From a virus (taxonomy: Duplodnaviria; Caudoviricetes): DNA of 64,000 nucleotides. The notes under the pieces were generated by a model. That model did not search any database. It was not told the origin of the DNA and saw nothing but the letters and a program-made list of their open reading frames with translations. The DNA is taken from the IMG/VR virus record IMGVR_UViG_3300048691_000224; one strand, given 5' to 3'. The translations under genes and the position numbers were made by a program. Positions 18,633-58,527 of this stretch are shown in pieces; position 1 is the first letter of the stretch; each line of letters begins with the position of its first letter.

Positions 18633-18637
18633 ATTTC

Positions 18638-18719: not shown

Positions 18720-18934
18720 ATAGACCCGAGATCATTTCTGTTTACTTCTACACCACGTCTGATGTACTAATTTTGGTTTTAGTTGCTACTGAGCTATATG
18801 CCAATAATATTTGTGAGGCTGTGCGAGCTCATCTGCACACTTGGGCTTTTTGTCTTCTCGTTCCAGCTGGCTCTTACGACTGTAGCGTCACCTCAAAAAA
18901 TGGTGCTCCCTCACTCAATCAGGAATACACAAAG

Positions 18935-19020
18935 TGCTGGACACAGGATTCGAACCTGCGATGGATAATAAAATCAATAGCTTACAAAACTATTCCCGTC
19001 AACCGCTTGGGTAATCCAGC
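18935..19020 (-). tRNA. tRNA-Thr(TGT) with a class II-like body (long variable arm); CCA not encoded
   Basis: GCTGGAT/GTCCAGC; ATAGT-TTTGTAA-GCTAT; 17-nt variable region. Confidence 0.75.
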
Positions 19021-19066
19021 ACTTTGTATACTCACTATGAGTGGTGGGTGCACGTTGTATATCTTC

Positions 19067-19137
19067 AGCGGAATGTCAGAATCGAACTGACAACCACAGT
19101 TTGGAAAACTGTCGTTTTACCATTAAACTAATCCCGC
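19067..19137 (-). tRNA. tRNA-Gly(TCC), second copy; CCA not encoded
   Basis: ACAGT-TTTCCAA-ACTGT; U73. Confidence 0.85.
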
Positions 19138-19235
19138 ATAAGTTGGACGTGTGTCGATGAAGCCCCACGATTATCCAATACGTGGTATTTTTCAGACTTG
19201 GCTTTCCAGTATTTACTGACTGGATACATTTGAAA

Positions 19236-19325
19236 TGGTGGAAGTAGTGAGATTCGAACTCACGGACGGATTGCTCCGCCGGCAGTTTTCAAGACTGCTC
19301 CATTAAACCACTTTGGTACACTTCC
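19236..19325 (-). tRNA. tRNA-Ser(TGA)
   Basis: GCAGT-CTTGAAA-ACTGC; long variable arm; CCA. Confidence 0.95.
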
Positions 19326-19346
19326 TTAAAATATTCGCATAATTTT

Positions 19347-19422
19347 TGGCAGGCCGGGCAGGGTTCGAACCTGCGACACTTCGCGTCAAAGGCGAATGCT
19401 CTACCAGCTGAGCTACCGACCG
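19347..19422 (-). tRNA. tRNA-Gln(TTG), second, divergent body
   Basis: TTCGC-CTTTGAC-GCGAA; G73; 1-72 mismatch. Confidence 0.8.
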
Positions 19423-19431
19423 ACAAAAATA

Positions 19432-19505
19432 TGGTGGACCGTCCCAGAATCGAACTGGGACTATAGCTTGCAAAGCTATCGTGTTACCATCTATACCAAC
19501 AGCCC
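19432..19505 (-). tRNA. tRNA-Ala(TGC)
   Basis: ATAGC-TTTGCAA-GCTAT; G3-U70; CCA. Confidence 0.95.
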
Positions 19506-19522
19506 TTTTGTTTACGCGTGTG

Positions 19523-19597
19523 TGGGTCAAATAATGGGGATCGAACCCATGCTAACAGAATCACAATCTGTGTTGCTACCATTACAACATATTTGAC
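19523..19597 (-). tRNA. tRNA-His(GTG)
   Basis: ACAGA-TTGTGAT-TCTGT; G-1:C73. Confidence 0.95.
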
Positions 19598-19600
19598 ATA

Positions 19601-20218
19601 CTATAACTCACCAAGTTGTTGTGCGCTAATCACGATCCTACGTGCTTGGTGTTTATTGTCGATTCCCCAAATTTCCTTGTTTCGAACAAGCGCCCGATAC
19701 TCAACGTCACTGTTAATTTGGGTAATTTCTCGAGGTGGTATCAGACTTACGTAGTATACCCACAAATCAATACGTAACGCATCCAGAATCCTATTGTCCC
19801 AGAATCGTTGCCCATCTTCCGTTTGTTGCGAGTCGGTAATGATTGATCTATACTTCGGCAACAAGCACTCGAAGAATACAAATTCGGTGAGCCCCCTTGT
19901 CTGAAATACCTGGGAGTCTCTCCACACCATTACTTGCTGTGCACAAGTTGTTCTGAGGTATGAGTTCGAGCCAACAGTAAATTGCATTGCGTATGCCGCT
20001 CTCTGAGTATCATGTTCGATCAGTGCGTATGCTCTCGTCGACTCGTAAAGAGTATAGTCGCCTATTTGTTTGATCGCTATTGGTCGCTTTGTTTCGAAAA
20101 ACTTGTGAGTAAATGCGGCATTCTTAATGTCATCCATCAGATGAAAATCTGTCGGAAACACAGACTGAGGCAGTTCAAACAGCTCCTGCGGCTTGACCTG
20201 TGATTGTATAAATTTCAT
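19601..20218 (-). CDS. Hypothetical protein embedded in the tRNA array
   Basis: 205-aa ORF; IITDSQQTEDGQRFW motif (possibly GNAT-like, unverified). Confidence 0.65.
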   Translation of the reverse strand: MKFIQSQVKPQELFELPQSVFPTDFHLMDDIKNAAFTHKFFETKRPIAIKQIGDYTLYESTRAYALIEHDTQRAAYAMQFTVGSNSYLRTTCAQQVMVWRDSQVFQTRGLTEFVFFECLLPKYRSIITDSQQTEDGQRFWDNRILDALRIDLWVYYVSLIPPREITQINSDVEYRALVRNKEIWGIDNKHQARRIVISAQQLGEL

Positions 20219-20233
20219 TGTGTATCCTAATTT

Positions 20234-20307
20234 TACAGCTACAGAGAATTGAACTCTGATTACTGGTGATGAGAACCCCAGCGTCCTAGACGTTAGACGA
20301 TAGCTGC
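20234..20307 (-). tRNA. tRNA-Glu(CTC), atypical anticodon stem; CCA not encoded
   Basis: Glu-type D-arm TCGTCTA...AGGAC; CTGGGG-TTCTCAT-CACCAG. Confidence 0.7.
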
Positions 20308-20345
20308 ATTTATTTTTCGGCTCTTGCTAACCGATCGATTCATCA

Positions 20346-20485
20346 ATATGATGGTCAGGATTTTAACCTGACGTTTCCACGGGCACGAGTATCCTTATTT
20401 AGACGACTACAGTTAACCCGTAGATGAGTTTCAAAACTCACGTCTCTCGCTGTTGAGGTATCCTAATCTCTAGATGACATCATAT
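20346..20485 (-). ncRNA. 140-nt double-cloverleaf tRNA-like RNA candidate
   Basis: ATATGATG/CATCATAT outer stem; two D-arm+T-arm modules; central CTACGG/CTGTAG hairpin. Confidence 0.6.
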
Positions 20486-20497
20486 AATTAAAAATTT

Positions 20498-20571
20498 TGG
20501 TACAGATACGGGGAGTCGAACCCCGCTTAGTAGAGAGAAAATCTACTGTCCTACCGATAGACGATATCTGC
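20498..20571 (-). tRNA. tRNA-Glu(TTC) with a pyrimidine at position 37
   Basis: GTAGA-TTTTCTC-TCTAC; CCA. Confidence 0.9.
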
Positions 20572-20582
20572 ATTTATTTTTG

Positions 20583-20620
20583 TGGCTCCTTAGACAGGCA
20601 TCTCGAACCTGTATATTACG
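20583..20620 (-). pseudogene. tRNA 3'-half remnant
   Basis: ACAGG-TTCGAGATG-CCTGT followed by ...GAGCCA; no 5' half visible. Confidence 0.35.
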
Positions 20621-20623
20621 GCT

Positions 20624-20697
20624 TGGTCAGGGTAGAAGGAATCGAACCTTCACCACGACGTCCCAAACGTCGCATGATACCATTTCACCACACCCTG
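20624..20697 (-). tRNA. tRNA-Pro(TGG)
   Basis: CGACG-TTTGGGA-CGTCG; CCA. Confidence 0.95.
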
Positions 20698-20702
20698 ATA
20701 AC

Positions 20703-20775
20703 TAATTAGATCTAAGTGTGCTCCTGTTACAAACTGCCGGTGAGGCCTGGCGTAGTGCACACTTAGATCTAATTA
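20703..20775. repeat. Perfect 19-bp inverted repeat with a 35-nt loop
   Basis: taattagatctaagtgtgc / gcacacttagatctaatta. Confidence 0.9.
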
Positions 20776-20960
20776 CTCAGGGTTGAGAGACACAAATTGT
20801 ATTAACGGGAGGAATGAGGCATCAGCGACCACTCATATTACCAACTCACAAATTAATACAAAGCATTTCACGCCCTGAGTAATAAGATATTATTTCACAC
20901 CTATTTGTTAATGATCATTTTTGCTACAGAATTCGATGATTCTGAGTGCACATATAATTG

Positions 20961-20992
20961 AAAAGAGCCTTGTAAATTACTTGGCTCTTTTT
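20961..20992. terminator. Bidirectional intrinsic terminator-like hairpin
   Basis: AAAAGAGCC...GGCTCTTTTT. Confidence 0.6.
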
Positions 20993-21182
20993 GTGTTTGT
21001 TATAATTCTTATTATTCTGAGGGATCAAATTCTTTTTCGATCTCCATAATTTCGATTATCACATACACAGGGAGCTTTACAATCCGCCGGCGTCCAATAA
21101 TTGGCTTCCGTCTGGCAATGTTCACTTCCTGTATTATACGAATTCAAAATCATTTCTTGATCTCTTTATTTGCTATCTGTCT

Positions 21183-21211
21183 ATTATATATGCTTTATTT
21201 ATATAAGTCAA
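21183..21211 (-). promoter_or_regulatory. Sigma70-type promoter (TTGACT-N17-TATAAT) driving the main tRNA array
   Basis: Near-consensus, upstream of the ORF-free structured region. Confidence 0.8.
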
Positions 21212-21233
21212 CAATTATTTTACCAAAATTTTA

Positions 21234-21352
21234 AAAATATTTTCAAATCAAAGTTTAGAAAGGACTTGAACCTCCCATCCAATAGGATAGCAATTGAACG
21301 CCGCCCCGACTGCTCTACCAATGAGCTATAAAATTTGATTTGAAAATATTTT
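21234..21352 (-). ncRNA. tRNA-mimic element E3 (D-arm and T-arm inside a 19-bp perfect terminal stem)
   Basis: TA-GCTC-ATTGGTA-GAGC; GGAGG-TTCAAGT-CCTTT; AAAATATTTTCAAATCAAA and its complement. Confidence 0.65.
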
Positions 21353-21376
21353 AGATTTTCTAACTACTTAGACCCC

Positions 21377-21404
21377 ATTATCAACATTTATTTGAACAGG
21401 TCAA
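21377..21404 (-). promoter_or_regulatory. Promoter (TTGACC-N16-GATAAT) for element E3
   Basis: Family-like -35 box, directly upstream of E3. Confidence 0.65.
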
Positions 21405-21423
21405 CAATTATTTTTCAACTTGA

Positions 21424-21600
21424 AAAATAAATTTAGAAAGAGCGGGTAAAGGGAGATCGAACCCTAACAACTTAGTGGATTTCTCGATAGGTAATATTAC
21501 CTCCTATCGCGGCACAGATCCTCAATACTAATTAGGAGTCTACTAATCTATGCCCGCACGAAGTTGGCTGCCTTGCAACCACTCTTTCTGAATTTATTTT
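21424..21600 (-). ncRNA. tRNA-mimic element E2 (extended anticodon arm, 19-bp terminal stem)
   Basis: GCGGGCA/TACCCGC; GATT/AATT D-stem; AGGG-TTCGATCT-CCCT; CGATAGG/CCTATCG. Confidence 0.6.
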
Positions 21601-21616
21601 ATACAAGAATTGCACT

Positions 21617-21766
21617 AAAAACTGAACACAGTACTCGGTTGGATTTGCACCAACTACCACCTGATGGTTACAGGTCGTACTATTCTCATGGGCTTTATAG
21701 CTAATATTTCCCACTACCTTTGTACTAGCTCTACTATTTAAGCTATCGTTACACTGTTCAGATTTT
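21617..21766 (-). ncRNA. tRNA-mimic element E1 (extended anticodon arm, variable arm, terminal stem)
   Basis: GCTT-AAATAGTA-GAGC; ACCTG/CAGGT; GTTGG-TGCAAAT-CCAAC; CTGAACA/TGTTCAG. Confidence 0.6.
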
Positions 21767-21789
21767 AATGTAATCCTCACTTGATATCC

Positions 21790-21817
21790 ATTATCAATGA
21801 AGTTTCAAACAAGTCAA
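21790..21817 (-). promoter_or_regulatory. Promoter (TTGACT-N16-GATAAT) for elements E1+E2
   Basis: Directly upstream of E1. Confidence 0.65.
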
Positions 21818-21824
21818 CAATTAT

Positions 21825-22025
21825 TTAATTTACTTTCTGGCCGGTGCTGGAATTGATGCACAAAAATCGGCTGGTATTAGAGTCTCCAATTTTACTAGCC
21901 ACAAGCAATGTGGTGCTTGCATTTTTGCAAGCAAGTTCTGATGCATAATTACCTAACACAGCTGGTGCAGCTAATGGATTGTGGAATGATGCTGCAATGT
22001 AAATTAGTGTGTATACGGTCGCCAT
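21825..22025 (-). CDS. Small exported/membrane protein (GxYAS..AC family), paralog of 27254-27466
   Basis: Hydrophobic N-terminus; LGNYASELACK; AAGGA SD. Confidence 0.6.
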   Translation of the reverse strand: MATVYTLIYIAASFHNPLAAPAVLGNYASELACKNASTTLLVASKIGDSNTSRFLCINSSTGQKVN

Positions 22026-22061
22026 TTTGAATTTCCTTTATTAAACTTGCTCTTAGGGTCT

Positions 22062-22089
22062 ATTATACCCCAAATCGGAGTAAGGTCAA
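22062..22089 (-). promoter_or_regulatory. Early promoter (TTGACC-N16-TATAAT)
   Basis: Family member with the -10 palindrome. Confidence 0.8.
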
Positions 22090-22128
22090 CAAGTAATTCA
22101 AGTTTTTATGGTTTTAATCAAAAAAAGT

Positions 22129-22473
22129 TCAGATATCGTGGTAATCCCAGTTTTCAATACATGAACCATATGATTCGATAAAATTATTGTAGGCAGCTTC
22201 CGTCGAGGCTTCTACCAACGATTCTAAATCTCCAACCACTTTACCGTACACTAGGTGTGATGCTTCAAAGTGGTTCACCCACTTGTAATAGTCTTCATGA
22301 ACTTCCGCGACCACTGTCCATCCAGACACTTCATCATATCCAATACAAACTGGATTAAGCGTAATTGCTTCTGTTCTTCTTTGCACACACGAGTTAACTT
22401 TAAATGGTAACTCGTCAACGGTAGGGACAATTGGTCTGTTCAAAAACTCGGTTAATGCTTGATTATTCATCAT
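22129..22473 (-). CDS. Hypothetical protein
   Basis: Likely start MMNNQAL. Confidence 0.6.
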   Translation of the reverse strand: MMNNQALTEFLNRPIVPTVDELPFKVNSCVQRRTEAITLNPVCIGYDEVSGWTVVAEVHEDYYKWVNHFEASHLVYGKVVGDLESLVEASTEAAYNNFIESYGSCIENWDYHDI

Positions 22474-22636
22474 TGATTCCTTCGGAGTACAATCTATCTG
22501 CCTCATCGCACGGGTCTTCGTCGAGTGGATTAGTATCAATCATGATGTGCCCGATGTGAATTTTACCATCTTCAGTTGCACAGCACGGGTCACCAATGAA
22601 GTGTTGGCCAGCGAGTAGCGTTACTTTATTTTTCAT
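22463..22636 (-). CDS. Small hypothetical protein, 57 aa (MKNKVTLLAGQHFIGDPCC...)
   Basis: Translated by hand; fills the gap and overlaps the next start. Confidence 0.45.
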   Translation of the reverse strand: MKNKVTLLAGQHFIGDPCCATEDGKIHIGHIMIDTNPLDEDPCDEADRLYSEGINDE

Positions 22637-22649
22637 GTCAAACTTTCAG

Positions 22650-39979: not shown

Positions 39980-40395
39980 TGTAAGGCCTCTAGGTTTCTT
40001 AGCACACTAATTGCATCAACACAAGTAAGGGCAATATTTTCATCCTGGCGAATAGTCGCAATCTTGCGGTTGCCATCGACAACCACTCGTTGGTTGGACT
40101 TTTCAGCAGTGGTTACTCTCGTTTGTTGCTCAATAACTTGGGTCTTGAGTTTGTTGACAGCCGCATTTTGGAGTGCTATTGTGTCTCGGAAGCTATCTGC
40201 TTGTTGGGTATTCAACTCTGAAGCAACAATTAAATCTGTTTCTTGTTGTTTAACTTTGACTTCGAGTTTAGATACCACTGATTGTGAGTGTTGCAGCATA
40301 CCATACATGACGATAATGACTATCGAACATACGCCATACCCCCAGGCGGCGAGTGGTACTCGTCTTAATAAAGATACAATTATTGATATACTCAT
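39967..40395 (-). CDS. Inner-membrane spanin (Rz-like)
   Basis: N-terminal TM segment, coiled coil and C-terminal Cys. Confidence 0.75.
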   Translation of the reverse strand: MSISIIVSLLRRVPLAAWGYGVCSIVIIVMYGMLQHSQSVVSKLEVKVKQQETDLIVASELNTQQADSFRDTIALQNAAVNKLKTQVIEQQTRVTTAEKSNQRVVVDGNRKIATIRQDENIALTCVDAISVLRNLEALQWKK

Positions 40396-40424
40396 GTGCG
40401 TATGGCCACTGTTGGTCTGTGGTC

Positions 40425-40432
40425 TATTTATA
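40425..40432 (-). promoter_or_regulatory. T4-type late promoter TATAAATA
   Basis: Exact consensus upstream of the spanins. Confidence 0.75.
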
Positions 40433-40440
40433 CAAAAGCG

Positions 40441-41394
40441 TCAAAACGAGAAGTCAGACTCATACGCCTTACTTTGGCGAGTGGGGACTTGTCTGGGAAT
40501 CGAATCGAACATATTATGCAGCATATTGTCAACCAACATACCAACGTGGCGTTGCCTATCAATTTTATCAAAGAATTCATCCTTGAACCACTGAGGAATC
40601 ATCTCCTCATCTGTCGGGACAGCAATCGCCTTAAACATACGACCGGCGTGTTCCATTTCATATTTTAGTTTGAAAATCTTAATTTTCATACCACTCGATA
40701 TTAACAGCGACTCAGTATCTCCCGCAGCTTGTCTAAAATCATTATATAAAATTGCTGCTGATACATGGCCGGGTAGGCGTGTAGTTGGGTAGTCTCTAAA
40801 CGAGGCTGTGTACTGTTCAATTCCCTTGATACCTTTTGGAAGGCCGAGATCCATTAGATCAATCTCATCAATCATTTCATCACGATATTCCATGATAAAA
40901 TCATCTAGCTCTTCATCAGGGGTTCCTGTAAGCATTTTGTGACACGTAGATCGCAGGAATGCTTTGACGGGGCGGGGGGTCGTAGTCTTGCGCATGTCGA
41001 CCCCCATAGCCTTCAGTTCATCCTTGGCCTTGCCTTCTTTGTCGATCACATGGATGACATACCGCTTCTTCTGAATGAAAAATCCTTTATCAGCAACCAA
41101 TTCTCTACCAGTTTTAATGTGCTGGTCGAACCCGGGTTGTACCAAGAATGCTGATCGATTGTACGCGGGGAATGAGGCATTGATCTCATGACCTATCTTG
41201 TCAGCAATCTTAACTACAAGGTTTGGATTGGCATTGGGTGGGATTATCTCACTGAGTGAACAATACAAACTGTTGTGCACCAATATACCGTTGGCGAAAA
41301 AATTATGTACCCCATCAACCTCAATGTCGTACACATCAAGCTCTTGTAGACCCAAATCAATAATTTCAAAATTATCTGTCTCAACTATATTCAT
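40441..41394 (-). CDS. DNA polymerase B, C-terminal fragment preceded by a 41-aa C-intein (41272-41394)
   Basis: VYDIEVDGVHNFFANGILVHN|SLY; FIQKKRY; KAMGVDMRK. Confidence 0.9.
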   Translation of the reverse strand: MNIVETDNFEIIDLGLQELDVYDIEVDGVHNFFANGILVHNSLYCSLSEIIPPNANPNLVVKIADKIGHEINASFPAYNRSAFLVQPGFDQHIKTGRELVADKGFFIQKKRYVIHVIDKEGKAKDELKAMGVDMRKTTTPRPVKAFLRSTCHKMLTGTPDEELDDFIMEYRDEMIDEIDLMDLGLPKGIKGIEQYTASFRDYPTTRLPGHVSAAILYNDFRQAAGDTESLLISSGMKIKIFKLKYEMEHAGRMFKAIAVPTDEEMIPQWFKDEFFDKIDRQRHVGMLVDNMLHNMFDSIPRQVPTRQSKAYESDFSF

Positions 41395-41401
41395 CTATTT
41401 T

Positions 41402-42475
41402 TTACTCTTCAGGGGGATCACGAGGTGGTAGTTTATATTCTGCACGTATTATGTCAAGCACGTGGCTGGGATCACGATCAAAATCTCGCTCCCACACTAC
41501 TATAGTGCGATAGTTCCGGCTTTGTATGTGGGCAAGTTTTTTAGCGTCTGCGTCCCAACACTGAGATGCGGTTTTTCTGCCTCTACCGCGGAGTGCTTTT
41601 GGGAAGTCGGTTGGACCATATAGCGTTGGATTCCCATGATAGTGATCCCCGTTGAATTCTATACAAATCTTGTGGTTGGTATCAACGTAATCATATTTGT
41701 AAAATCGTCTACCCAACGGGTCAAATGACCCAAATTCGGTATTTTTTGTGGCGTAATATACGTGCTCATCCGGAAGCTGTAAGTCATTGACTATTAAGTC
41801 GAACAATACTTGCGACTTTACGGAATAAAAGTTAAATTGATTTGAGAACTTCTCAACCAATTTCTGAGTAGCAAGCTCAATATCCCCATACCGTTGGATA
41901 TAGTTGTCAATTGTGTGGGCTTTAGATTTACATAGCGCATCCCATACTACCAACCCCTCATCCACCCCATGCTTGTCCTGGAACCACTGTAGGGATACTC
42001 CTGCAGTTCGTTGCTTCTCGACATAACTGGTCCATCTAAGCAACCCCTCTTGTTCACCATGGCGGGCGATCATTCTTTCTTTAGTCTGCTTTCTGGTTGA
42101 GTTGTATTCATCAAACTGATCGAGGGTCCACCCATGTGTACGCGATTTATACACAAATGTATTTTTTTCAGCCATGAATGCCCGACGTGCGGCCCATTTT
42201 GCATCTGCGTAAGCGCCGTATGATAATACGTAGCGGTCATATGTGTGGGATAACCCTCCTTTATGCTCAATAACAATCCTCCAATACCGATCAAACATAT
42301 TAGGTTCGATCTTATGAATTTCATATTTCAAGAAGTTATACGTAAACTTGTGGTGATTTTTGTTCCCACTATCTTCCAATTGCTTACTCAGTTGCTGGTA
42401 TTTAATTAAGTCGATATCTGATATGTCTAGGTTGAATGTAGTTGCTTTATTGCGTAGTGTTCGTAAGGTTAGCAT
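41402..42475 (-). mobile_element. Free-standing Vsr/EDxHD-like homing endonuclease between the polB halves
   Basis: YDYVD...IEFNGDHYHG...WDADAKK...VVWERD; KHG.EEG..W repeats. Confidence 0.75.
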
Positions 42476-42477
42476 GT

Positions 42478-44973
42478 TTATGGAGATACAGATTCGGGGG
42501 TATTTACACTAATCAACTTATCCCCCCTTACTATATTCATCGGTGTTGTGCTTATTATTTCAGTGCCGCGGCGGACTATAATGGAGTGATCAGCTGTTAT
42601 AGTAACCGATGCTCCATTTACCCTAACCTCAAACATGCGTTTTTTGACAGTATGTTTCATGACATAATTAATGGGTTTGGTTACTGGGTTGGACCCATCA
42701 AAACCCACACTCGTTGAGCCGACTACTCGCTTGACATAATTGTTGGTAATCGGGTCGTGTTTTATGAAATCACCTGGCTGCTCCTCGTAAAACTGGGCAA
42801 TAGTTTTTTGAATTCCGTTTACATAAATCGCGGTACCCCCAACAACCGAGTCGGTGTCGCCATAGATCAGACATGGGCTTGCAATCTCGTTGTTGATCGC
42901 CCGTGGGTCTTCATCACTAGTAATTGGGTTGATGTTGTAATCTCCATCTATAATTTCACAACCCTTGCGAATTTGGTGCCCGAGTATGCACCTACCTGTT
43001 GCAGTCACTGATTGCCCCATCCGCTTATCATAGAACCGGAAATTTTGATTGAGTAATGCACCGTATGCTGAATTGAGCTTAATTTTCATCGCATATTGCG
43101 TCATATCTGCGAATTCATACTCTGTCTGCAGTAATGCCGCTTGATGAGCATCAGTCGTTGCTGCTATGGCACCCAATACTTGTTTGGATTGAGCTTGGAA
43201 TTGCTTCCTTGTCGAATACCACCTACCGAGTAATGCTGGAATGATGCCTTCAACATCTTGGCGGAAAACTGTACCGTACCCTGAAATGGCATACTTCAGT
43301 TCAATGAGATGCTCCTTCCACATTCTAGCTGACTTAGTTTCTACTTCCTGAGTTTTTTCCCATCTAAATGTTAATTGGGCGGTTGACCCAGCATTAATCT
43401 CAGTCCACGCAGACTCAAACTCACTGAATTGTCCGATTAACGTCTCGGGTGAAATGTTGACGGTGCGGATTGTATTTGGGTATAGAGAATTTATATCATA
43501 ACAAACTATCCAGTTATGCATACCAGTTTGCGGAACTAACACATATGCACCGGCAGCTTGCCCTTGTTCGTCTAGCTGTTTTGTATCAGGGACCCGAACA
43601 TTTAACTCGTACCAACAGTAATTATTGATAGCCATCTCTGCAGACCGGACAGTACCCACAATGTTTTTGAAATGGCACGTAGATTCATGAATTAGTGTAT
43701 TAGCTAAATTTATAAATTTATACTTCTTATCTAACTCTCGAAGAATTTCAGTGTCACGGCAATTGTACCTCACAAACTTACTAAAGTTGTTGTTGTACAG
43801 ATGGTGCAGAGTGCCTTCGTAATCCAACTTCTTGAATCGCTCGCCGAGATGGTCCTGGGAAACAGTTTCCAAGTTCCACGAGTCTCGATCCTCGACTGTA
43901 AACTTCTTGAATAACTCCATGTAGTCGAGTGTGACGCGGCCATCAAACTGAACAAATAATTGCTCTTGGAAGAATACTTCTTTGGTCTGGAACCACGGCG
44001 CTTTACCTTTTGGAAATGACAGCATCTGCAACCACTCTTTGCCTAACACAATCTCCACTCGTTTAGCGAAGTATGGATCATCAAATCGTGAGGAGTTCCA
44101 ACCAGACAACAAATCTGATTGTTGAATTTCCTCAACGGACCGAGTGAGTAGCTCAGTCTCATTTTTACAGAACACAATTGTAACCTTGGAATCAATATCT
44201 TCAAATAAACTGTAGTCAAACAGTTCTTCGACATTGCATCCTGTCCAGGACTTGGGTGGGACAGAAAAGATGACGTACTCGTCTTTCCAGGTGTGGTAGA
44301 ACGCAATTGAGTTTAGTGGTGCGTATGGATCGAGTGGTGAGCTGAAACCGATTGGCCCATCGTATGTGTACAATGAATTTTTAACCGCCACCCACTTCTT
44401 TACCGGCTCATCCCACACCTCAACATCAGGATCGCTCCTATAATCGCGAAGGTCCCAAACTGTAGCTTCGAAGGATTCTGAACCAATATTGCGAAGTTTG
44501 ATTTTATGGTCCGCGTCGTACTTTTTGGGCCGGTAATCTACCTCGATGTCATAGTATGTTGTGTTGATGTGAGGCAATTCACATTTATAATACAGCGCAC
44601 TCAGCGCCTTTAGTTCAGGTGGAATGTCGCTCTCAAATAAATCAACATCGATTGGTTTGCTATCTAGAAACTTCGACATCTCCTTCTTATTTGAGAATTC
44701 TAGTTCATACAAATCATCACCAAACATTGATTGATATTTGGTAGTTTCATCAATTGCAGTAGTACCAAGCCCCAGAAACTTTTTTAACACTCCATCAGGC
44801 GTTCCTTCTTCTACCGAATCACTAAACTCAGCGTGGGTTGAGTACCAGTCGCTACACTTGATGTAGCAATTGTACAGCGCCCTGACTGTCTTAATCGTCG
44901 GGGCGTGGTTAGGTGTCAGGCGTTGTTCCCAGATGGTTACGTGATCGAAGTGTCTACTAGCTGCAATGTACAT
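42478..44973 (-). CDS. DNA polymerase B, N-terminal fragment ending in a 123-aa N-intein (42478-42849)
   Basis: ExoI YDIEVD, ExoII WNSSRFD, ExoIII YNCRD; YDINSLYP; KIKLNSAYG; YGDTD|SVVGGT. Confidence 0.92.
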   Translation of the reverse strand: MYIAASRHFDHVTIWEQRLTPNHAPTIKTVRALYNCYIKCSDWYSTHAEFSDSVEEGTPDGVLKKFLGLGTTAIDETTKYQSMFGDDLYELEFSNKKEMSKFLDSKPIDVDLFESDIPPELKALSALYYKCELPHINTTYYDIEVDYRPKKYDADHKIKLRNIGSESFEATVWDLRDYRSDPDVEVWDEPVKKWVAVKNSLYTYDGPIGFSSPLDPYAPLNSIAFYHTWKDEYVIFSVPPKSWTGCNVEELFDYSLFEDIDSKVTIVFCKNETELLTRSVEEIQQSDLLSGWNSSRFDDPYFAKRVEIVLGKEWLQMLSFPKGKAPWFQTKEVFFQEQLFVQFDGRVTLDYMELFKKFTVEDRDSWNLETVSQDHLGERFKKLDYEGTLHHLYNNNFSKFVRYNCRDTEILRELDKKYKFINLANTLIHESTCHFKNIVGTVRSAEMAINNYCWYELNVRVPDTKQLDEQGQAAGAYVLVPQTGMHNWIVCYDINSLYPNTIRTVNISPETLIGQFSEFESAWTEINAGSTAQLTFRWEKTQEVETKSARMWKEHLIELKYAISGYGTVFRQDVEGIIPALLGRWYSTRKQFQAQSKQVLGAIAATTDAHQAALLQTEYEFADMTQYAMKIKLNSAYGALLNQNFRFYDKRMGQSVTATGRCILGHQIRKGCEIIDGDYNINPITSDEDPRAINNEIASPCLIYGDTDSVVGGTAIYVNGIQKTIAQFYEEQPGDFIKHDPITNNYVKRVVGSTSVGFDGSNPVTKPINYVMKHTVKKRMFEVRVNGASVTITADHSIIVRRGTEIISTTPMNIVRGDKLISVNTPESVSP

Positions 44974-45062
44974 TGATTTGGGTGTTTTGTATACTAAGAA
45001 AAGATAAAACTCACCTAATATTATCAGGTGAGTTGTGAGTTGTTAGCTAGATTGTAGTAGGA

Positions 45063-45578
45063 TTAAAATTCAGAGAGTAGATCTTCATTCCACTCTCTGT
45101 GACCTTCCCGAAAGGCCATATTCGCTTGTGTTTCACGGACCTCAACTTTATAGCACCAGAGCCGCTCAGCTTCGCTTTGCCCCAACATGTCGGGAATGTA
45201 AACGCCATTGACGTATTTGTATAACATGTCTGCCAATCCTTCACAGCCCAATCTAGGGAGGATCGTTAGCTTAGCAATGCCTGCACTCTGCATTGCTTCA
45301 TAGAGCGTAATATATGGATCATCCTGGGCGACTAGTAGTGTATGGTCAAATTGATCTGCCAAAACTTGTTTTAATTCTTTGAGGCCGCCATAGTCACAAA
45401 CCCAGTTTCTTTTGTCAAGATCATTTGTACCGAAGTAAAACTTCATTGAAAAACAGTACCCGTGTACAGTGTTGCACCAGGTGTCTGATTTCCACTGGCG
45501 ATATGCACACGGGAATGCGTCAACGTACTCTTTTGTGGATGTGAATTTGTATGCGATTGGCTGATGTTGTGGGGTCAT
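45063..45578 (-). CDS. queD: 6-carboxy-tetrahydropterin synthase (QueD/PTPS family)
   Basis: CAYRQW...C..VHGY...WVCDYGGLK...QFDHTLL...GCEGLA. Confidence 0.85.
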   Translation of the reverse strand: MTPQHQPIAYKFTSTKEYVDAFPCAYRQWKSDTWCNTVHGYCFSMKFYFGTNDLDKRNWVCDYGGLKELKQVLADQFDHTLLVAQDDPYITLYEAMQSAGIAKLTILPRLGCEGLADMLYKYVNGVYIPDMLGQSEAERLWCYKVEVRETQANMAFREGHREWNEDLLSEF

Positions 45579-46540
45579 TGTAATCTTTCTGTAGTATAGT
45601 TAATAAATTCGCTCAGAACTTCTACTGTTTGTTGCTCCGTGAAGTCAGATCGGACGACAAAGACTTTGTACCCTCGATCTTCAGCCATTTGTATTTTAGC
45701 TTGGTCTTTTGAATATTTTTGTGCATATGTCATGCCAGTTATCTCCATCAGCTCATCAGGAAATTCCTCAGCTTGCTGTTTAGTTGGGTGCCACCGAAAT
45801 CCATCATACTCTAAAATTGATTTGGCTTCACGTACACAGAAATCATAAAAATTAACACCACTCTTAGAACTCAAAAACCACTCACATTTGGATTTGTCGG
45901 AGGAACTTCTGTAATACAGCGAGTAATTTAATAGCCATGGATTTTCCAACAACACTCGATCGATTAGTATTTCAGCTTCCTTCGAATGGCCGATAGACTT
46001 GAAAATTTTCTGGAGGTAACGGGCGTATAATTCGTGACCAAGCTCACCATGCTTGTCGATGTAAATTTGGAGCTTTGTTTTATTACCATATCGCTCTTTT
46101 TTGGTTGCGGATGATTTCGCAGCTCTCGTCGTGATGTGGTATTGCCGTTCTGTCTCAGATAGATTGGACCAATACTTATCAATAGCAGCTTTTCGTTTTG
46201 CATGCATTGCATCTACCGCAACCTCTCCACCACTTGCTCGGACTAGAGCGACAGTGTTCTTCTTAGCGACAGTGTCCTGCCATTTTTTTCTACCTAACTC
46301 TTCACCCCACCTAGCAATCATATTTTCTTCCGACTGCCTGGATTTATTCACATGATTATTAAATCTAGTTAAACCATCTAGTGGATATCTCCACACAAAC
46401 CACTCCTTGGTTAGTCGTGTATACGGGTGAGTGGCGTAAGTTTGTGCTCGTATAGCCAATCGCCGTTGGGTAGCCTCAAATTTCTCAACCCCTCGATCGT
46501 TACCATATTTATCGATGTAGTCTTGTACCGTCATTACCAT
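45575..46540 (-). mobile_element. Second Vsr/EDxHD-like homing endonuclease
   Basis: FYDFC...ILEYDGFRWH...KDQAK...GYKVFVV; KYG..RG and WGEELG repeats. Confidence 0.7.
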
Positions 46541-46579
46541 ATCCGTGCTCCTAATTAAAAGAGTATTTATACACGGATA
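46540..46579 (-). promoter_or_regulatory. Late promoter TATAAATA (46564-46571) inside a hairpin that covers the SD-to-start region
   Basis: TATCCGTG/CACGGATA arms; CTCTT can pair with AGGAG. Confidence 0.75.
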
Positions 46580-53172: not shown

Positions 53173-54030
53173 TTAATTCACAACCAAATTAGTGAGATAT
53201 TTATGCAGATCAGGCAGTCCGCCAATGGAGGTGCCATCAGGGCACACTATTTGCGGGAAGCTTCGAGCGCTTGGAAACTTCTCACTAAAGTCATCACGCG
53301 TGAAGTCAACATCCAACATCTTGGTTATAAATTGTTTATCCTTGTTTGTCAGTAGCGCTTTAGCTTGATCGCACTGTGGACAGCCGGGTTTGGAATATAC
53401 AGTAAATTCTGGAATTCCAACATATCGATCTGCTGAACCAAACATTGGAGCATCATCACCGCTGTATTGGCCCCAGACGTCATCCCAATCACCCTCTGTA
53501 GCACCTTTGGAATACTCAAATACTTTTTGTTCGAAAAAGTTTCCGTGAGTTACGCTATCAATCATCTGCTCTACCCATGGTAGCGGATTCTTTTTAATTT
53601 TGAATATCCCCTTTAATCCAAGGGCGATCAATCGGCGATCTGCAATGTACCTAATATACAACTTCACATCAGCTGCCGTAAGGTCTTTCATTTCACCCAT
53701 CTCAAACGCGAGATCGATAAACTTATCCTCCAAATCAACCATGCGCTCTGCAATTGTATAGAGTTGACTCTTCAGGCTATCTTTCCAGATGTGTCGATTT
53801 TCCTCAATAAACACACGGAACAACTTAATCATAGCGTCTGTATGACAATTACCAGAAATGGATAGTGTGTTAGCATGTCTAATTTGAAACGCTGTACCAG
53901 GGACGCTGAGACAAAACACTTCTGTTGACTGAAGTTCTTTGGTCACTTGTACTGCTGATTTGGGGATCGGTGGTAAGCTACCAGCAATCGCCTGAAGCAT
54001 ATTGATAATATCCGTATTTGTTTTATTCAT
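53173..54030 (-). CDS. nrdB: NrdB C-terminal fragment: 61-aa C-intein (53848-54030), RNR beta C-part and fused glutaredoxin
   Basis: VFCLSVP...SISGN|CHTDAMIKLF; YIADRRL; NFFEQ; YSKPGCPQC. Confidence 0.85.
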   Translation of the reverse strand: MNKTNTDIINMLQAIAGSLPPIPKSAVQVTKELQSTEVFCLSVPGTAFQIRHANTLSISGNCHTDAMIKLFRVFIEENRHIWKDSLKSQLYTIAERMVDLEDKFIDLAFEMGEMKDLTAADVKLYIRYIADRRLIALGLKGIFKIKKNPLPWVEQMIDSVTHGNFFEQKVFEYSKGATEGDWDDVWGQYSGDDAPMFGSADRYVGIPEFTVYSKPGCPQCDQAKALLTNKDKQFITKMLDVDFTRDDFSEKFPSARSFPQIVCPDGTSIGGLPDLHKYLTNLVVN

Positions 54031-54982
54031 TTGTTGTATTCTGAGCACTAGTTAATGTTTTTGCGCGAGCCGCTGCTGCAGCGGCTAGCAGTTTGTCAAT
54101 GTGTTTTATGGTTCTACCTAATTTCCACCCAGTTGGTATCTCAGCTAGCCTACCAATAGTTTTAGATTCAGTGCCGTTGGTTATCCACTGCTTATCGCGC
54201 TTCTTTTGGGTCATCCCAGCCCAGAATCCAATTGGAGGATCTATATTAGGCTGAAGCTTCAGATTGGTTGTGCCATCTGTATAGCAAATTACACCCCTAA
54301 TATTTGGGTGATTTGATACTTGCATCCTTTGGGCAGCAGTACGGATTTGGGGTGGGGGTGGATGTTTACCAAATCTCCACCCAACTGGTAGTTGGGCTGT
54401 TTTTAGCATTTGTGTCGACGTTGTACCATCAGTAATCCACCTAAACTTCCCTACTCGAGTTGCTGAGGCCTTGCGCCTAATCTCTATTGCTTCTTCAGTA
54501 TACACTCGTCCTGTGTTGTTGGGAATACTATGTGGGTGGTCTTGCAACCGCTTGATGTTGCGCCTAGTCACACATTCTAGTTCATCCGCCGAATAGTAAC
54601 TACCACCATTTAATAATCGCCGGGCAGCAGATGTTTTTGCACGCGTAGCGGTAGCTTTTGACCTTGCGGTTTGACGCACATAATCAGGTACACCCGCTAG
54701 TGTGTCTCCACCTTGGCCACCTATTGCTATGTTGTAGGTATCATCCCTTGATACAAAATTAACGTCAACTAGTTGACGTTCTACAGCTCGAGCTTCGTCC
54801 CAAGTGTCACACTCATGCAATGTGATTCTCACAAAGTTATCTCTACCATATTTTTCGACGGCCCTAGCTAACAATATACCCGAACCCAAATACCCATCAA
54901 ATTGATCGGCAAACTGCTTGTGGATCCCCACATATATGCGATCATTGATTACGTTAGTTGTCTGGTACACGATATAATTCAT
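54023..54982 (-). mobile_element. Free-standing GIY-YIG homing endonuclease between the nrdB halves
   Basis: YIVYQTTN...IYVGIH...YLGSG...KYG..NF...E...YN; WITDG/WITNG repeats. Confidence 0.85.
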
Positions 54983-54996
54983 TCAGATTCAAGATG

Positions 54997-55036
54997 TTAC
55001 GTGGTACCATATTTATGTCTTCGTTGTACCACGTAA
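54997..55036 (-). promoter_or_regulatory. 11-bp hairpin with a late-promoter-like CATAAATA in its loop
   Basis: ttacgtggtac / gtaccacgtaa. Confidence 0.6.
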
Positions 55037-55044
55037 TATTCTCT

Positions 55045-56094
55045 TCAGCTCATGTACTCTAGTAGAAATTCCTTCGCCCACGATGAGTCCATTATTGGGA
55101 GCAGTGGCAATACCCACTCCAAAGACAATACACCTTCTTTGGTGAGTCTACACAATTCCTTATGCTTGTCTGTCAATACTTTCAAGGAGCCACTCTTAGT
55201 GCCCGAGCACACGTAACTAAACTCCTCAGTTACAGATTCAATATCCTTCGCCTGAACGTCCTGTATCCGACCATCACCCATCTCTAAAATCATTCTATGA
55301 TTTGGTGATACTGATTGTGAGAAACCTTCACCCTTAAAATGGTACACTGTCGGTACTGTTTTCTTGGTAAGATTGGTTGGAGTCACAAAATTAGTCTGAC
55401 TGGTTTCGGTATCATACTCTAACAGTTCAGTAGATAGTGTGACACATTCGATAGGTAACCACCCATCTAGTGTCATAACTTCTGTGCCGGCAACCAAACA
55501 CTTCTCATCAAGGATCGACCAAGAGATGTTTGAGCCCATTCCAACCATCGTTCCGTGACGGGGGAAGTTCAATAACATGATGAATGATGAAAATAATTGC
55601 ATACCTTCAGTGAATGCTGAGAATACTGCTAGCTGTTGAGCAATGGACTCGGTGTCAGTTCCGATAAAATTCTCAACATATTCGTATTTTTCACGCATCG
55701 CATCATATTCTAAGAACTGATTGTAGATTGTGTCAGGCATTCCTAGCGTTTCCACTAGGTTAGAGTATGCTGCAATATGAGTAGCTTCACGAGCCGCAAA
55801 ACTTAACAACATCATCCGAACTTCTGGTTGGGGAAATACCGGTAGATAATTCATCACATATGCATTTGCTACACTGATGTCACCTTGAGTGAAAAATCTG
55901 AAGATGTGGGTCAAGAAGTTTTGTTCAGACTGTGTTAATTTGGTGTTCCAATCTTTAACATCCTCCAGGAGAGGGGCCTCCCAGTGACCCCAATGCATGC
56001 GTTCGTGATCCATCCACGTTTCGTAGCACCACTGGTAGTTGAATGGCTTGTACGATGGACGTGGGTCTGTTAATTTTAATTTCTTTTTGGACAT
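55045..56094 (-). CDS. nrdB: NrdB N-terminal fragment ending in a 151-aa N-intein (55045-55500)
   Basis: FFTQGD; REATH; FTEGMQLFSSF; WSILDEK|CLVAGTEV. Confidence 0.9.
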   Translation of the reverse strand: MSKKKLKLTDPRPSYKPFNYQWCYETWMDHERMHWGHWEAPLLEDVKDWNTKLTQSEQNFLTHIFRFFTQGDISVANAYVMNYLPVFPQPEVRMMLLSFAAREATHIAAYSNLVETLGMPDTIYNQFLEYDAMREKYEYVENFIGTDTESIAQQLAVFSAFTEGMQLFSSFIMLLNFPRHGTMVGMGSNISWSILDEKCLVAGTEVMTLDGWLPIECVTLSTELLEYDTETSQTNFVTPTNLTKKTVPTVYHFKGEGFSQSVSPNHRMILEMGDGRIQDVQAKDIESVTEEFSYVCSGTKSGSLKVLTDKHKELCRLTKEGVLSLEWVLPLLPIMDSSWAKEFLLEYMS

Positions 56095-56100: not shown

Positions 56101-57927
56101 TTATTGGCAGGCGATACACTCTGTAGAATCAACAGCTTCTGTGGTAGGAGACTGTTCGTCGATTTTAACTCGTTTGATTGTTTTGGAGATTTTTTCAGTA
56201 GATTTAAGTTTCTCACTTCTAAGGTAATATAGCGTCTTCAATTCTTGTTTCCAAGCATTGAAGTGAATGTCGTGCAATACCTTAGTAGTCACGTTAGGTT
56301 TGGTGAACACATTAACACTCTGCGCTTGGTCGATGTGGGGTTGACGATCAGCAGCGAGATCAATGATATGTTGTTGGTCAATTTCCATTGCTGTCTTGAA
56401 CACGTCTTTTGTATGTGCGTCAAATAAATCAGAGTGTTGGATTGACCCATCGTGTGCATTGATGTCCGACCAAATATCATCACGGTCCAACTTTTTATCT
56501 GCAGCACACAGAGCAATAATCAATTTATCAAGGTATGGGTTGCGATGGAAGTTGAATCCAGAGAGTGTGTCCTGACGATAGCAGTTGGCTCTGAACGGTT
56601 CGGCGCTTGGTGAAGTGTTTCCTAGAATCAAACTAGACGACGCATTTGGCGCAAGTGCGCATCTGTGAGAGAATCTAAGTGGTTTGGTCATGTCCCCACC
56701 ACCTTCGATATAGTCGAGGTTTGCTCCACGCTCTACCCCAAGTCTCTCTGAGGATTCGAGTGATTGATCGTCTAGCTGTTTGAATATTTGGATATTCATT
56801 GCTCGCGATTCGGGTGATCCAAACGCAACATTATTTTTTTGGAAATATGCGTGCAGACCAAGCAAACCCAAACCAACTGATCTCTCTCGTTGAGCTGAGA
56901 AGCGAGCTCGAGCAATCGAATCTGGCGCATTATCTATAAAATATTGCAGCACATTATCCAACATTTCCATAACATCAGATATAAACAAGTTGTCGTTCTT
57001 CCACTCATCGTAGTACTCCGCATTTACAGATGATAGTACGCAGATTGCAGTTCGATTTTCATCGACAGGTAGTGTTATCTCAGAGCACAGATTCGACTGT
57101 CGGATTTTCAATCCTAATTTTTTTTGCCAGTGAGGGAGCTTCTTATTTGCGGTGTCGATGAACAGAAAATATGGTTCGCCGGTTTCTTTGCGGAGTTTGA
57201 GCAGTTGAGACCAGAGAGCTTTGGCAGATACCACCTTAGTAACTTCTTTGCTGAATGGATCAATCAGTGGCCAATCATCATTAGCATTACTGTCCTTCAT
57301 ACATCGTTCGATGATGTGCATGAAAGCATCTGGGATATTGACTGCGTGATTCAAATTTGTGCAACGTGTATTAGCATCGCCAGTAGGTTTTCTCATTTCT
57401 AAGAATGGGATAATCTCGGGGTGTGAGATATCCAAATACATGGCGAAACTACCTCTGCGCGTAGATCCTTGTTTGTAGGCCATACTCGCGCTGTCATACG
57501 TCTTCATATGGGCAAGTACGCCAGTAGATTTATCGTCGCTAGTACGAAGGCCAACACCTACGCCAACGCCTCCCCCAAGCATACTCAGAATACAGGTTTC
57601 TTTATAGGTATCAACCAACCCATCAGATGAATCAGGCAAAAAACTAAGGTAGCAGCTAACAGAAAGACCTTTCTTGTTGCGGCCATGTGATAAGATTGGC
57701 GTTGAATAACTCAACCAGTGTTTACTAGCGTAATTGTATAACCGCTGAGCGTGTTCAGGATTGCTAGAAAACTGCTTGGATACTTTAGCGAACCGCTCTT
57801 GTGGACTGACCTCGTCGGAGGTCATATATGATTCTCTGAGCCTCTGTAGACCGAGTTGATCAAACAATGAATCGCGTGAGTAGTCTACGGTAATGCCTGC
57901 TATTGCAGGTGGGAGAGTGGTTGTCAA
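56101..57927 (-). CDS. nrdA: Class Ia ribonucleotide reductase alpha subunit (no ATP cone visible)
   Basis: VSCYL; SNLCSE; CVLSS; APNASSS; EP; DQAQS; TLYY; C-terminal CIAC. Confidence 0.95.
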   Translation of the reverse strand: MTTTLPPAIAGITVDYSRDSLFDQLGLQRLRESYMTSDEVSPQERFAKVSKQFSSNPEHAQRLYNYASKHWLSYSTPILSHGRNKKGLSVSCYLSFLPDSSDGLVDTYKETCILSMLGGGVGVGVGLRTSDDKSTGVLAHMKTYDSASMAYKQGSTRRGSFAMYLDISHPEIIPFLEMRKPTGDANTRCTNLNHAVNIPDAFMHIIERCMKDSNANDDWPLIDPFSKEVTKVVSAKALWSQLLKLRKETGEPYFLFIDTANKKLPHWQKKLGLKIRQSNLCSEITLPVDENRTAICVLSSVNAEYYDEWKNDNLFISDVMEMLDNVLQYFIDNAPDSIARARFSAQRERSVGLGLLGLHAYFQKNNVAFGSPESRAMNIQIFKQLDDQSLESSERLGVERGANLDYIEGGGDMTKPLRFSHRCALAPNASSSLILGNTSPSAEPFRANCYRQDTLSGFNFHRNPYLDKLIIALCAADKKLDRDDIWSDINAHDGSIQHSDLFDAHTKDVFKTAMEIDQQHIIDLAADRQPHIDQAQSVNVFTKPNVTTKVLHDIHFNAWKQELKTLYYLRSEKLKSTEKISKTIKRVKIDEQSPTTEAVDSTECIACQ

Positions 57928-58080
57928 GGGTTCAGACTTTCAGGTTAAGGGATGGTGTGGAATCTAATAACAAATCAAATGCGTGAAGAGATTTCTCGTA
58001 TGTGATCGGATCACATGAAGTGGATCTATTTAGTACACATGAGTGTGAACTATGCTCCAAAATTAACATGTTTACTACAA

Positions 58081-58088
58081 TATAAATA
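58081..58088 (+). promoter_or_regulatory. T4-type late promoter TATAAATA
   Basis: Upstream of the 58169 ORF. Confidence 0.7.
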
Positions 58089-58168
58089 TACGGGAGTATT
58101 CACTCAGTAAACACGATACTAAATTCGCGTTTATCACATATCAACAACTCAGTTCTGACAAGGAAACC

Positions 58169-58495
58169 ATGGAACAACAAACCCAATATCAACAACGCCC
58201 AGCTTTCAATTCCGAGGCAATGACGAATAAGCTATCAGCAATGTTTCGTAGTGCTACTCGAGCACTACCACACTCTTCCCCTAATTTGAGAAAGCTTCAG
58301 GTTAAATTTACATACTTTATTGACGACATTCAACGTGGGCCAGCATATGACCAGTCAAAGTTGAGTATGTTTGTACTACAATGGGTAAATGACTTGACGC
58401 GATCTCTCCAAGAAGCTCAAGGTACTAGTGGAGTAGACTCGTGTGTTCGCAGACTTATGGTACCTGAGTACGAGCACCGAAATTACTACATCTAA
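58169..58495 (+). CDS. Hypothetical late protein
   Basis: AAGGAAA SD; own late promoter and terminator. Confidence 0.65.
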   Translation: MEQQTQYQQRPAFNSEAMTNKLSAMFRSATRALPHSSPNLRKLQVKFTYFIDDIQRGPAYDQSKLSMFVLQWVNDLTRSLQEAQGTSGVDSCVRRLMVPEYEHRNYYI

Positions 58496-58502
58496 CATCA
58501 AT

Positions 58503-58527
58503 AAAAAGCCGCTTCAAGCGGCTTTTT
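58503..58527. terminator. Bidirectional intrinsic terminator
   Basis: AAAAAGCCGC-TTCAA-GCGGCTTTTT between convergent genes. Confidence 0.9.

Follow-up and report, generated by a model that had tools for sequence, protein, structure and literature searches.

A Fractured DNA Polymerase B Gene with a Cysteine-Less Split Intein in Motif C, Very Probably Joined by Protein trans-Splicing, in an Uncultured Freshwater Jumbo Phage

Introduction

The fractured genes described by Dassa et al. in 2009 (gp41-1, NrdJ-1, IMPDH-1, and others) consist of adjacent open reading frames (ORFs) that encode the two halves of a host enzyme, have split-intein sequences at their ends, and come with a free-standing endonuclease gene of the Vsr-like or GIY-YIG type, and the gene-breaking and homing pathway leading to them was proposed only as a model (PMC2677866). 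The eight host enzymes listed in that study did not include DNA polymerase B (PolB) (PMC2677866). A split intein of the PolB1 type is known from the Aeromonas phages Aes123, Aes509, Aes508, and AS-gz and from Campylobacter phage CP21 (PMC11923092, PMC12707363, PMC6892783). In the T4-like phages of Aeromonas salmonicida the locus is available as JN377899 and JN377902, and the Aes123 PolB1 intein, which trans-splices in vitro and whose crystal structure is Protein Data Bank (PDB) entry 9HTH, is the parent of the cysteine-less CL and CLm inteins (PMC11923092). The three genes of JN377902 (Aes509) are annotated as “includes putative N-intein; gp43B1,” “putative VSR endonuclease,” and “includes putative C-intein; gp43B2.” CP21 PolB1, LCGC14 PolB2, and GOM-OPS-1 PolB2 are also cysteine-less split inteins (PMC12707363), and a split PolB intein has been reported in the Pseudomonas jumbo phage MIJ3/PA5oct (PMC6892783). 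Here, we describe the polB locus of a 64,000-nucleotide (nt) stretch of DNA from a virus of the Caudoviricetes (Duplodnaviria; IMG/VR record IMGVR_UViG_3300048691_000224), the whole of which is called the window below.

The window locus shares with those of Aes123 and Aes509 the host gene, the DTD/S insertion site (the slash marks the break), the three-gene order, Ser1 and Ser+1, the absence of cysteine, and the split position. All three window genes have homologs in Aes509, with 44% identity for the N-intein (IntN), 69% for the C-intein (IntC), and 34% for the endonuclease. However, the window polymerase is only ~30–34% identical to those of the Aeromonas phages and is without their additional 43A/43B split, its IntN has 123 amino acids (aa) where 120 residues follow DTD in the Aes509 reading frame, and its host is an uncultured freshwater jumbo phage, unlike the A. 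salmonicida phages with the Aes locus. The adjacent ORF halves, the split-intein ends, and the free-standing endonuclease gene are as in the fractured genes of Dassa et al. The inteins of those fractured genes use Cys1. In 15 of their 26 loci the endonuclease gene overlaps the downstream gene by 6–69 base pairs (bp), a frequent but not obligatory trait (PMC2677866), whereas the window endonuclease gene stops 7 nt short of the downstream gene. Campylobacter phages CP21 and F379 have a homologous cassette at the same DTD/S site, and MIJ3/PA5oct has a homologous IntN (39%) there; the intervening gene is Hef-like by annotation in PA5oct and HNH in the MIJ3 paper (PMC6892783) but Vsr-like in the window. 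PolB of Nanoarchaeum equitans (Neq Pol) is likewise joined to a natural split intein (PMC2677866), cysteine-less according to PMC10189870; it is archaeal and thermophilic, and its two genes lie far apart, with no endonuclease gene between them (PMC2677866).

Organization of the polB Locus

The polB gene of the window is very probably a fractured gene whose product is joined by protein trans-splicing, with a cassette inserted in motif C between Asp708 and the following Ser; judging from the sequence, we give this reading a probability of roughly 0.88. It had been proposed in a first-pass annotation of this DNA and is supported by the adjacent halves on the same strand, their split-intein ends, the Vsr-like endonuclease gene, and the conserved splicing residues. 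The features of the locus are as follows:

42478–44973, minus strand: PolB-N gene, 831 aa, consisting of N-extein residues 1–708 and the 123-aa N-intein
42850..44973, minus strand: PolB N-extein (residues 1–708; exonuclease domain, fingers, and palm to motif C), from Pfam and PHROG 262
42850–42864, minus strand: motif C YGDTD, residues 704–708 of the N-gene product
42481..42849, minus strand: N-intein, 123 aa, cysteine-free, from the PDB 9HTH match and motifs kept in homologs
42847–42849, minus strand: codon of Ser1 (residue 709)
42652–42660, minus strand: NX motif MKH, intein positions 64–66
42586–42597, minus strand: block B TADH, intein positions 85–88
42478–42480, minus strand: stop codon of the N-gene, directly after the N-intein
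41402..42475, minus strand: free-standing putative homing endonuclease gene, 357 aa, with its own ATG, from Aes509 homology, profile, and fold
41420–41830, minus strand: C-terminal Vsr-like/EDxHD nuclease domain of the endonuclease, residues 216–352
40441–41394, minus strand: PolB-C gene, 317 aa, consisting of the 41-aa C-intein and the C-extein
41272..41394, minus strand: C-intein, 41 aa, cysteine-free, from 69% identity to the Aes509/F379 C-inteins and a partial Pfam Intein_splicing match
41317–41334, minus strand: block F VYDIEV
41272–41280, minus strand: terminal VHN of the C-intein
40441..41271, minus strand: PolB C-extein, 276 aa, rest of the palm and thumb, including the stop codon, from PHROG 262
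41269–41271, minus strand: codon of Ser+1, followed by LY
41272–42849, minus strand: whole inserted cassette (N-intein, endonuclease gene, and C-intein), 1578 bp

The first-pass annotation had read the N-gene as ending in YGDTD plus a 123-aa N-intein beginning with Ser1, and the C-gene as opening with a 41-aa C-intein that ends in VHN/SLY; at the coordinates above both readings are exact to the residue. The intein end of the C-gene reads VYDIEV...HNFFANGILVHN/S, which comprises blocks F and G, the His-Asn pair, and the +1 nucleophile. Joining the two exteins would yield a 984-residue polymerase with YGDTDSLY across the joint, so that the motif which splicing had been said to restore is confirmed from the sequence of both genes, and the endonuclease gene said to lie between them is indeed present as a 357-aa ORF that is Vsr-like by profile and fold. 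This ORF starts 2 nt past the N-gene stop codon and ends 7 nt ahead of the C-gene start, in a reading frame different from that of both halves, which share one frame. In the spacer before the C-gene ATG (41395–41401, TAAAAAATAG), one RNA-library contig (X23) lacks one base of the A run at 41398, which may be a population variant or an error.

The N-gene product matched Pfam DNA_pol_B (1.7e-26) and DNA_pol_B_exo1 (6.5e-09), and its match to the PHROG 262 DNA polymerase profile (1.9e-117) ends at profile position 583, while that of the C-gene product covers positions 582–845 of 856 (9.1e-37). As the match stops at 583 and resumes at 582, nothing of the polymerase has been lost at the break. The spliced product also aligned colinearly with the continuous PolB of L005, one of the nearest IMG/VR relatives. 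The arrangement is not a chance resemblance, because the halves match a solved split intein and L005 reads straight through the site (GDTDS-GY).

The top matches of the polymerase among cultured phages were jumbo phages of Ralstonia, Xanthomonas, and Stenotrophomonas (36–40% identity), and the proteins of the window sit on a source contig of at least 221 kb in the gene-calling database. The sequencing runs in which the stretch was detected are all listed as freshwater metagenomes, 15 of them with half or more of its sampled words. Also present in the window are rIIA/rIIB, 21 tRNA genes, and genes of ribonucleotide reductase and of 7-deazaguanine. These features identify the host as an uncultured freshwater T4-like jumbo phage. 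When the locus was compared by megablast with 50,697 phage records, no near-identical DNA was found, and the phage is absent from that collection.

The Split Intein

The only strong PDB match of the N-intein was 9HTH (phmmer E 1.5e-26 over 116 residues), and homologs of the N-intein were found in 42 of the 50,697 phage records. It is 44% identical to the IntN of Aes509/Aes123, and the C-intein shares 69% identity with its counterparts in Aes509 and Campylobacter phage F379. In a motif alignment that took in Aes509, F379, Pseudomonas phage PA5oct, and two metagenomic loci, Ser1, the K/R-H NX motif, block B T-x-D-H, block F, the terminal HN, and Ser+1 were invariant or conservatively kept among six homologs; T-x-D-H was invariant, and both Ser1 and K/R-H were kept in all six. 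The Ser nucleophile after YGDTD, the block B TADH, blocks F and G with HN, and the +1 Ser are those of a class 1 intein. Ser1 and Ser+1, the complete absence of Cys from both halves, and the MKH motif agree with the description of cysteine-less Ser1 inteins, of which the K/R-H NX motif is a signature (PMC10189870). The net charges of IntN (+4) and IntC (−9) are opposite, which fits the electrostatic capture step known for split inteins (PMC11923092).

Both halves aligned end to end with an unsplit 159-aa mini-intein from a related phage (P0096, locus L091), and the break point of the window intein maps to a short linker of that protein. By alignment and modeling, the two halves together would form a HINT domain, split at the endonuclease-insertion position. 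A predicted complex between IntN with 10 extein residues and IntC with 19 extein residues scored 0.77, against 0.00 for the best control; 51 of 78 solved complexes attained this score, as did 2 of 108 mismatched pairs. The prediction runs agreed in at least 86% of contacts, with a partner predicted local distance difference test (pLDDT) value of at least 67. The score may, however, reflect likeness to solved split inteins, a homolog being among them, rather than independent evidence.

Other inteins were seen at or near the same place in PolB. A second motif C site, two residues upstream (YGD/S ... HN/TDS, with Thr+1), is used in Klebsiella phage KP13-7 and in the loci L011 and L013. The second-site intein is unsplit in L013 (7449–8927) and probably also in L011, where only its C-terminal end was read (near 10077–10139), and in KP13-7 (L086, 3147–7907) it is split and accompanied by a Vsr-like endonuclease. 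At least two intein alleles occupy motif C, making it a hot spot. In Nitratidesulfovibrio phage SRB7757 (L087, 5037–7604) the N-part of PolB ends in AGDTD/SCPINS... and is followed by a Vsr-like endonuclease gene, after which the next ORF opens with another N-intein-like block (...YVMKHWVEKKMY...TEDHGL...); this arrangement looks like a more complex or duplicated intein.

The Endonuclease

The endonuclease matched the putative VSR endonuclease of Aeromonas phage Aes509 (34% identity, E 2e-43) and PHROG 22677 (6.5e-47), and a database search returned 90 homologs. An alignment of 44 sequences was built from the window endonuclease, 42 homologs, and a second endonuclease of the window described below; E247, D262, E273, G276, and H280 were invariant in it. 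The profile of this alignment matched the E. coli Vsr structures 1ODG, 1VSR, and 1CW0 (E 0.0075–0.011), placing D262 on the catalytic Asp51 and H280 on the catalytic His69 of Vsr, and E273 on Vsr Phe62. A Glu at the Phe62 position is a trait of the Vsr-like homing endonucleases of Dassa et al. (PMC2677866). D308 or D310, which align to the region of Vsr Asp97, are candidates for the fourth catalytic residue and are not among the invariant columns.

The AlphaFold model of the protein (pLDDT 92.7) has helical repeats over residues ~1–215 and a C-terminal alpha/beta domain. In VIA-align the nuclease domain superposed on Vsr 1CW0 with Z 11.2 (root mean square deviation (rmsd) 3.1, 116 residues aligned), on Vsr in a second comparison with Z 10.0, and on I-Bth0305I (3R3P) with Z 9.9 (rmsd 2.6, 97 of 97 residues aligned). 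Foldseek gave 3R3P a probability of 0.98 but an E value of 0.17, and with the whole endonuclease model it returned nothing at E up to 0.001. A Pfam scan at E up to 0.01 gave no domain, and a single-sequence PDB search with the endonuclease gave no match. The endonuclease is thus assigned to the Vsr-like/EDxHD family (PMC3239194) by profile and fold comparison, the only approaches that succeeded. The Foldseek matches to PPR/TAL-like and mitoribosome proteins were taken as a common helical arrangement of the N-terminal repeats and not as homology. Like the EDxHD prototype I-Bth0305I (PMC3239194), the protein has a C-terminal Vsr-fold domain after an N-terminal DNA-binding region; I-Bth0305I, however, is encoded by an intron in recA, and the putative homing endonuclease of the window has a longer N-terminal array of helical repeats.

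A second Vsr-like endonuclease is encoded at 45575–46540 (minus strand, 321 aa), between folE and queD and without an intein. It is a paralog of the polB endonuclease (E 6e-09) with a weak DUF559 match, and it is absent from the syntenic loci L005–L008, where the interval is 355 bp compared with 1430 bp in the window. An exact TATAAATA lies just upstream of it (46564–46571). In F379 (L004), the space between the polymerase halves (5479–6430) is annotated as two short hypothetical ORFs, but tblastn found one endonuclease homolog spanning 5699–6430 (28% identity); the F379 endonuclease may be broken or misannotated.

Empty, Unsplit, and Fractured Alleles in Related Phages

The four nearest IMG/VR relatives (L005–L008) have, in the same gene neighborhood, one continuous PolB of 1001 aa that reads GDTDS-GY through the site. 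The P0096 phage carries the same intein unsplit and without an endonuclease, its 159 aa being 59% identical to the joined halves of the window. A more distant phage from a Logan assembly (L088) has the same three-gene cassette, as do L089 and cultured phages; in L088 and L089 the 3′ end of the endonuclease gene overlaps the downstream half by 20 nt. Related phages thus show the empty, the cis, and the fractured state, in line with the gene-breaking model (PMC2677866).

Between the window and L088, the exteins are 58% and 66% identical, and IntN, the endonuclease, and IntC are 70%, 76%, and 80% identical, respectively; the cassette is hence more alike than the polymerase genes that carry it. 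The proportion of nonsynonymous differences (pN) in this comparison was 0.17 for IntN, 0.105 for IntC, and 0.137 for the endonuclease, while that of synonymous differences (pS) was 0.70–0.82. As synonymous sites were saturated (pS 0.70–0.88), only pN against pS was used, and no dN/dS ratio. The low pN beside a near-saturated pS indicates that the intein halves and the endonuclease are kept by purifying selection. Every junction of the cassette is spanned by contigs from two further freshwater DNA runs. In two DNA and two RNA-library runs, no contig ran from one flank of the cassette straight to the other; as absence cannot be shown with contigs, this result neither excludes an intein-less subpopulation nor proves the absence of RNA splicing, and uncovered bins in the RNA libraries carry no information on expression.

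A Mosaic Tract around the Insertion Site

The similarity between the window and L005 drops on both sides of the cassette, over a tract with two arms:

42850..43533, minus strand: upstream arm of the mosaic tract, spliced residues 481–708 (228 codons, 684 bp), from the identity drop against L005 and the approximately unbiased (AU) test
41116..41271, minus strand: downstream arm of the mosaic tract, spliced residues 709–760 (52 codons, 156 bp), from the identity drop against L005

The spliced polymerase is 89% identical to that of L005 over residues 1–480, 54% over 481–760, and 93% over 761–984; the downstream arm alone is 44% identical. The edges of the tract are sharp, with nucleotide identity falling from ~80–85% to ~50% and pN rising from 0.04–0.07 to 0.35. 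The tract is not intrinsically fast-evolving, because the window's similarity to other lineages is no lower there than outside it: the intein-less P0098 is 72% identical to the window in the tract and 63–66% in the flanks. Trees of the flanks place the window and L005 as sisters (support 100/98); the tree of the tract does not, and there the AU test rejected a clade of the two (p 0.013; the group was named after the tree was seen). Identity to the window in the tract is 54% for L005, 56% for L088, and 72% for the nearest, P0098, and no donor can be named. By these comparisons, the 280-codon tract around the site has a history distinct from that of the remaining gene. Movement of the cassette by double-strand-break repair, with co-conversion of 684 bp upstream and 156 bp downstream, would be expected to leave such a pattern.

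Proposed Mechanism and Alternative Explanations

What we infer about splicing, endonuclease specificity, and homing from the observed anatomy, the homology to a characterized split intein, the conserved residues, the purifying selection, and the presence or absence of the cassette in relatives is the following. The two polymerase halves would be translated separately; their intein parts, basic in the N half (+4) and acidic in the C half (−9), would bind each other and together adopt a single HINT fold. An N-O acyl shift at Ser1, attack of Ser+1 on the oxyester, and cyclization of the terminal Asn would then release the 984-residue polymerase with an intact YGDTDS, so that class 1 splicing would proceed through oxyesters with no cysteine involved. 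The endonuclease would cut intein-less polB alleles in co-infecting relatives, and repair of the cut alleles would bring in the entire cassette along with some of the adjacent polymerase sequence.

Several observations weigh against this scheme. The wild-type Aes123 homolog reaches only ~30% splicing efficiency in vitro (PMC11923092). The Pfam Intein_splicing match, which covers C-intein residues 10–41 to the end of the profile, scores 26.4 bits against a cut-off of 35.8; such a score is expected, because the C half is a fragment of 41 residues. The branch of L005 is the longer one in the tract tree, and either the window or L005 may be the converted party. Finally, the endonuclease gene is without a recognizable Shine-Dalgarno sequence, late promoter, or start-masking hairpin, which makes its expression uncertain. 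Start-masking hairpins occur in some fractured genes and in T4 homing endonuclease genes; the fold of 42455–42545, upstream of the endonuclease start, was no better than that of shuffled sequences (z 0.03). No exact copy of the T4-type late promoter TATAAATA was found within the locus, and scans for sigma-70 promoters and terminators gave no excess over shuffles.

The halves of the intein could also have ceased to splice and now serve as a noncovalent dimerization module in a two-subunit polymerase, with parallels in the split gp43A/gp43B (Aeromonas phage 44RR) or in NrdA of phage Aeh1, which is fragmented. Phages are known to have split polymerases and reductases that function unspliced (quoted in PMC2677866 and PMC3045599), and the association of the halves seen in the complex prediction is compatible with dimerization. 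This is nonetheless unlikely, as Ser1, the block B His, the terminal His-Asn, and Ser+1 are all present and kept among homologs, an unspliced HINT domain of 164 residues would separate the catalytic DTD from the next residue of motif C, and the nearest characterized homolog does splice (PMC11923092). If the polymerase gene were instead dead or decaying, or its break an assembly artifact, the origin of the genome from a metagenome assembly, with no isolate, would be in keeping; we see only a very small chance of this, given that the closely packed ORFs are unbroken and show purifying selection, that the sequence recurs in the 15 freshwater runs while contigs of two further runs bridge the junctions, and that L088, L089, and cultured phages have the same architecture.

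Removal at the RNA level would imply a group I intron carrying the endonuclease ORF, with intein-like ends arising by coincidence. Vsr-like endonucleases occur within group I introns too, for example, in recA of phage 0305phi8-36 (PMC3239194), and phage polB can carry such introns, as in Aeromonas phage 25 (quoted in PMC2677866). However, an Rfam scan of 40000–45500 at E up to 1 found no intron, the 2 and 7 noncoding bases flanking the endonuclease ORF leave no room for one, and the flanking 123 and 41 codons make up a bona fide HINT domain under purifying selection. An RNA-library contig (X23, record 20) also reads through, unspliced, from the terminal part of the endonuclease gene into the C-intein, with DNA carry-over possible. 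On the sequence, RNA splicing is very unlikely as the route of removal, and we give it next to no weight beside protein trans-splicing of a fractured gene.

Other Observations in the Window

The gene for the small subunit of ribonucleotide reductase (53173–56094, minus strand) is also fractured. Its N part (55045–56094) passes from ...ILDEK into a Cys1 intein. The locus also has a GIY-YIG endonuclease gene (54023–54982) and a C part (53173–54048) with an intein end ...SISGN followed by CHTD and, in addition, a thioredoxin-like domain; joining the parts would re-create the ExxH iron-ligand motif. Next to it, the NrdA-like large subunit (56101–57927, minus strand, 608 aa) aligned with its PHROG profile from position 190 onward only, out of 975, and the ~600 bp upstream (57928–58525) hold no ORF of at least 130 aa, so that its N-terminal ATP-cone region is either absent or separately encoded. 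The 21 tRNA genes form an array at 15190–26720 (minus strand), all reaching the Rfam gathering threshold.

Significance

The arrangement and the PolB1 allele have already been described, crystallized, and used as a ligation tool through a homolog. The suggestion in the first-pass annotation that a Ser1/Ser+1 split intein could serve as a ligation tool was correct but had already been realized with Aes123 PolB1 (PMC11923092, PMC12707363). New here are the intein-less closest relatives, the unsplit relative, the distant phage with the cassette, and the 280-codon mosaic tract. Cysteine-less split inteins active at ambient temperature are few, with only a handful characterized (PMC12707363), which makes a divergent member of the PolB1 type a reasonable candidate for protein ligation. 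The Aes N-fragment is prone to aggregation. It is conceivable, although we put this forward only tentatively, that the window intein is orthogonal to the CL/CLm and LCGC14 tools or better behaved than that fragment, and that the series of loci together with the tract is a direct footprint of gene breaking and homing.

If the trans-splicing is true, a selfish element would have made an essential replication enzyme of this phage dependent on ligation after translation. Such dependence is well documented in related phages, and the locus adds no new principle to it. Its added value is modest and lies in the divergence from characterized inteins and in the natural series of empty, cis, and fractured alleles: the window, its intein-less sister allele, and the unsplit relative make a good natural data set on endonuclease-driven gene fracture and the co-transfer of flanking sequence.

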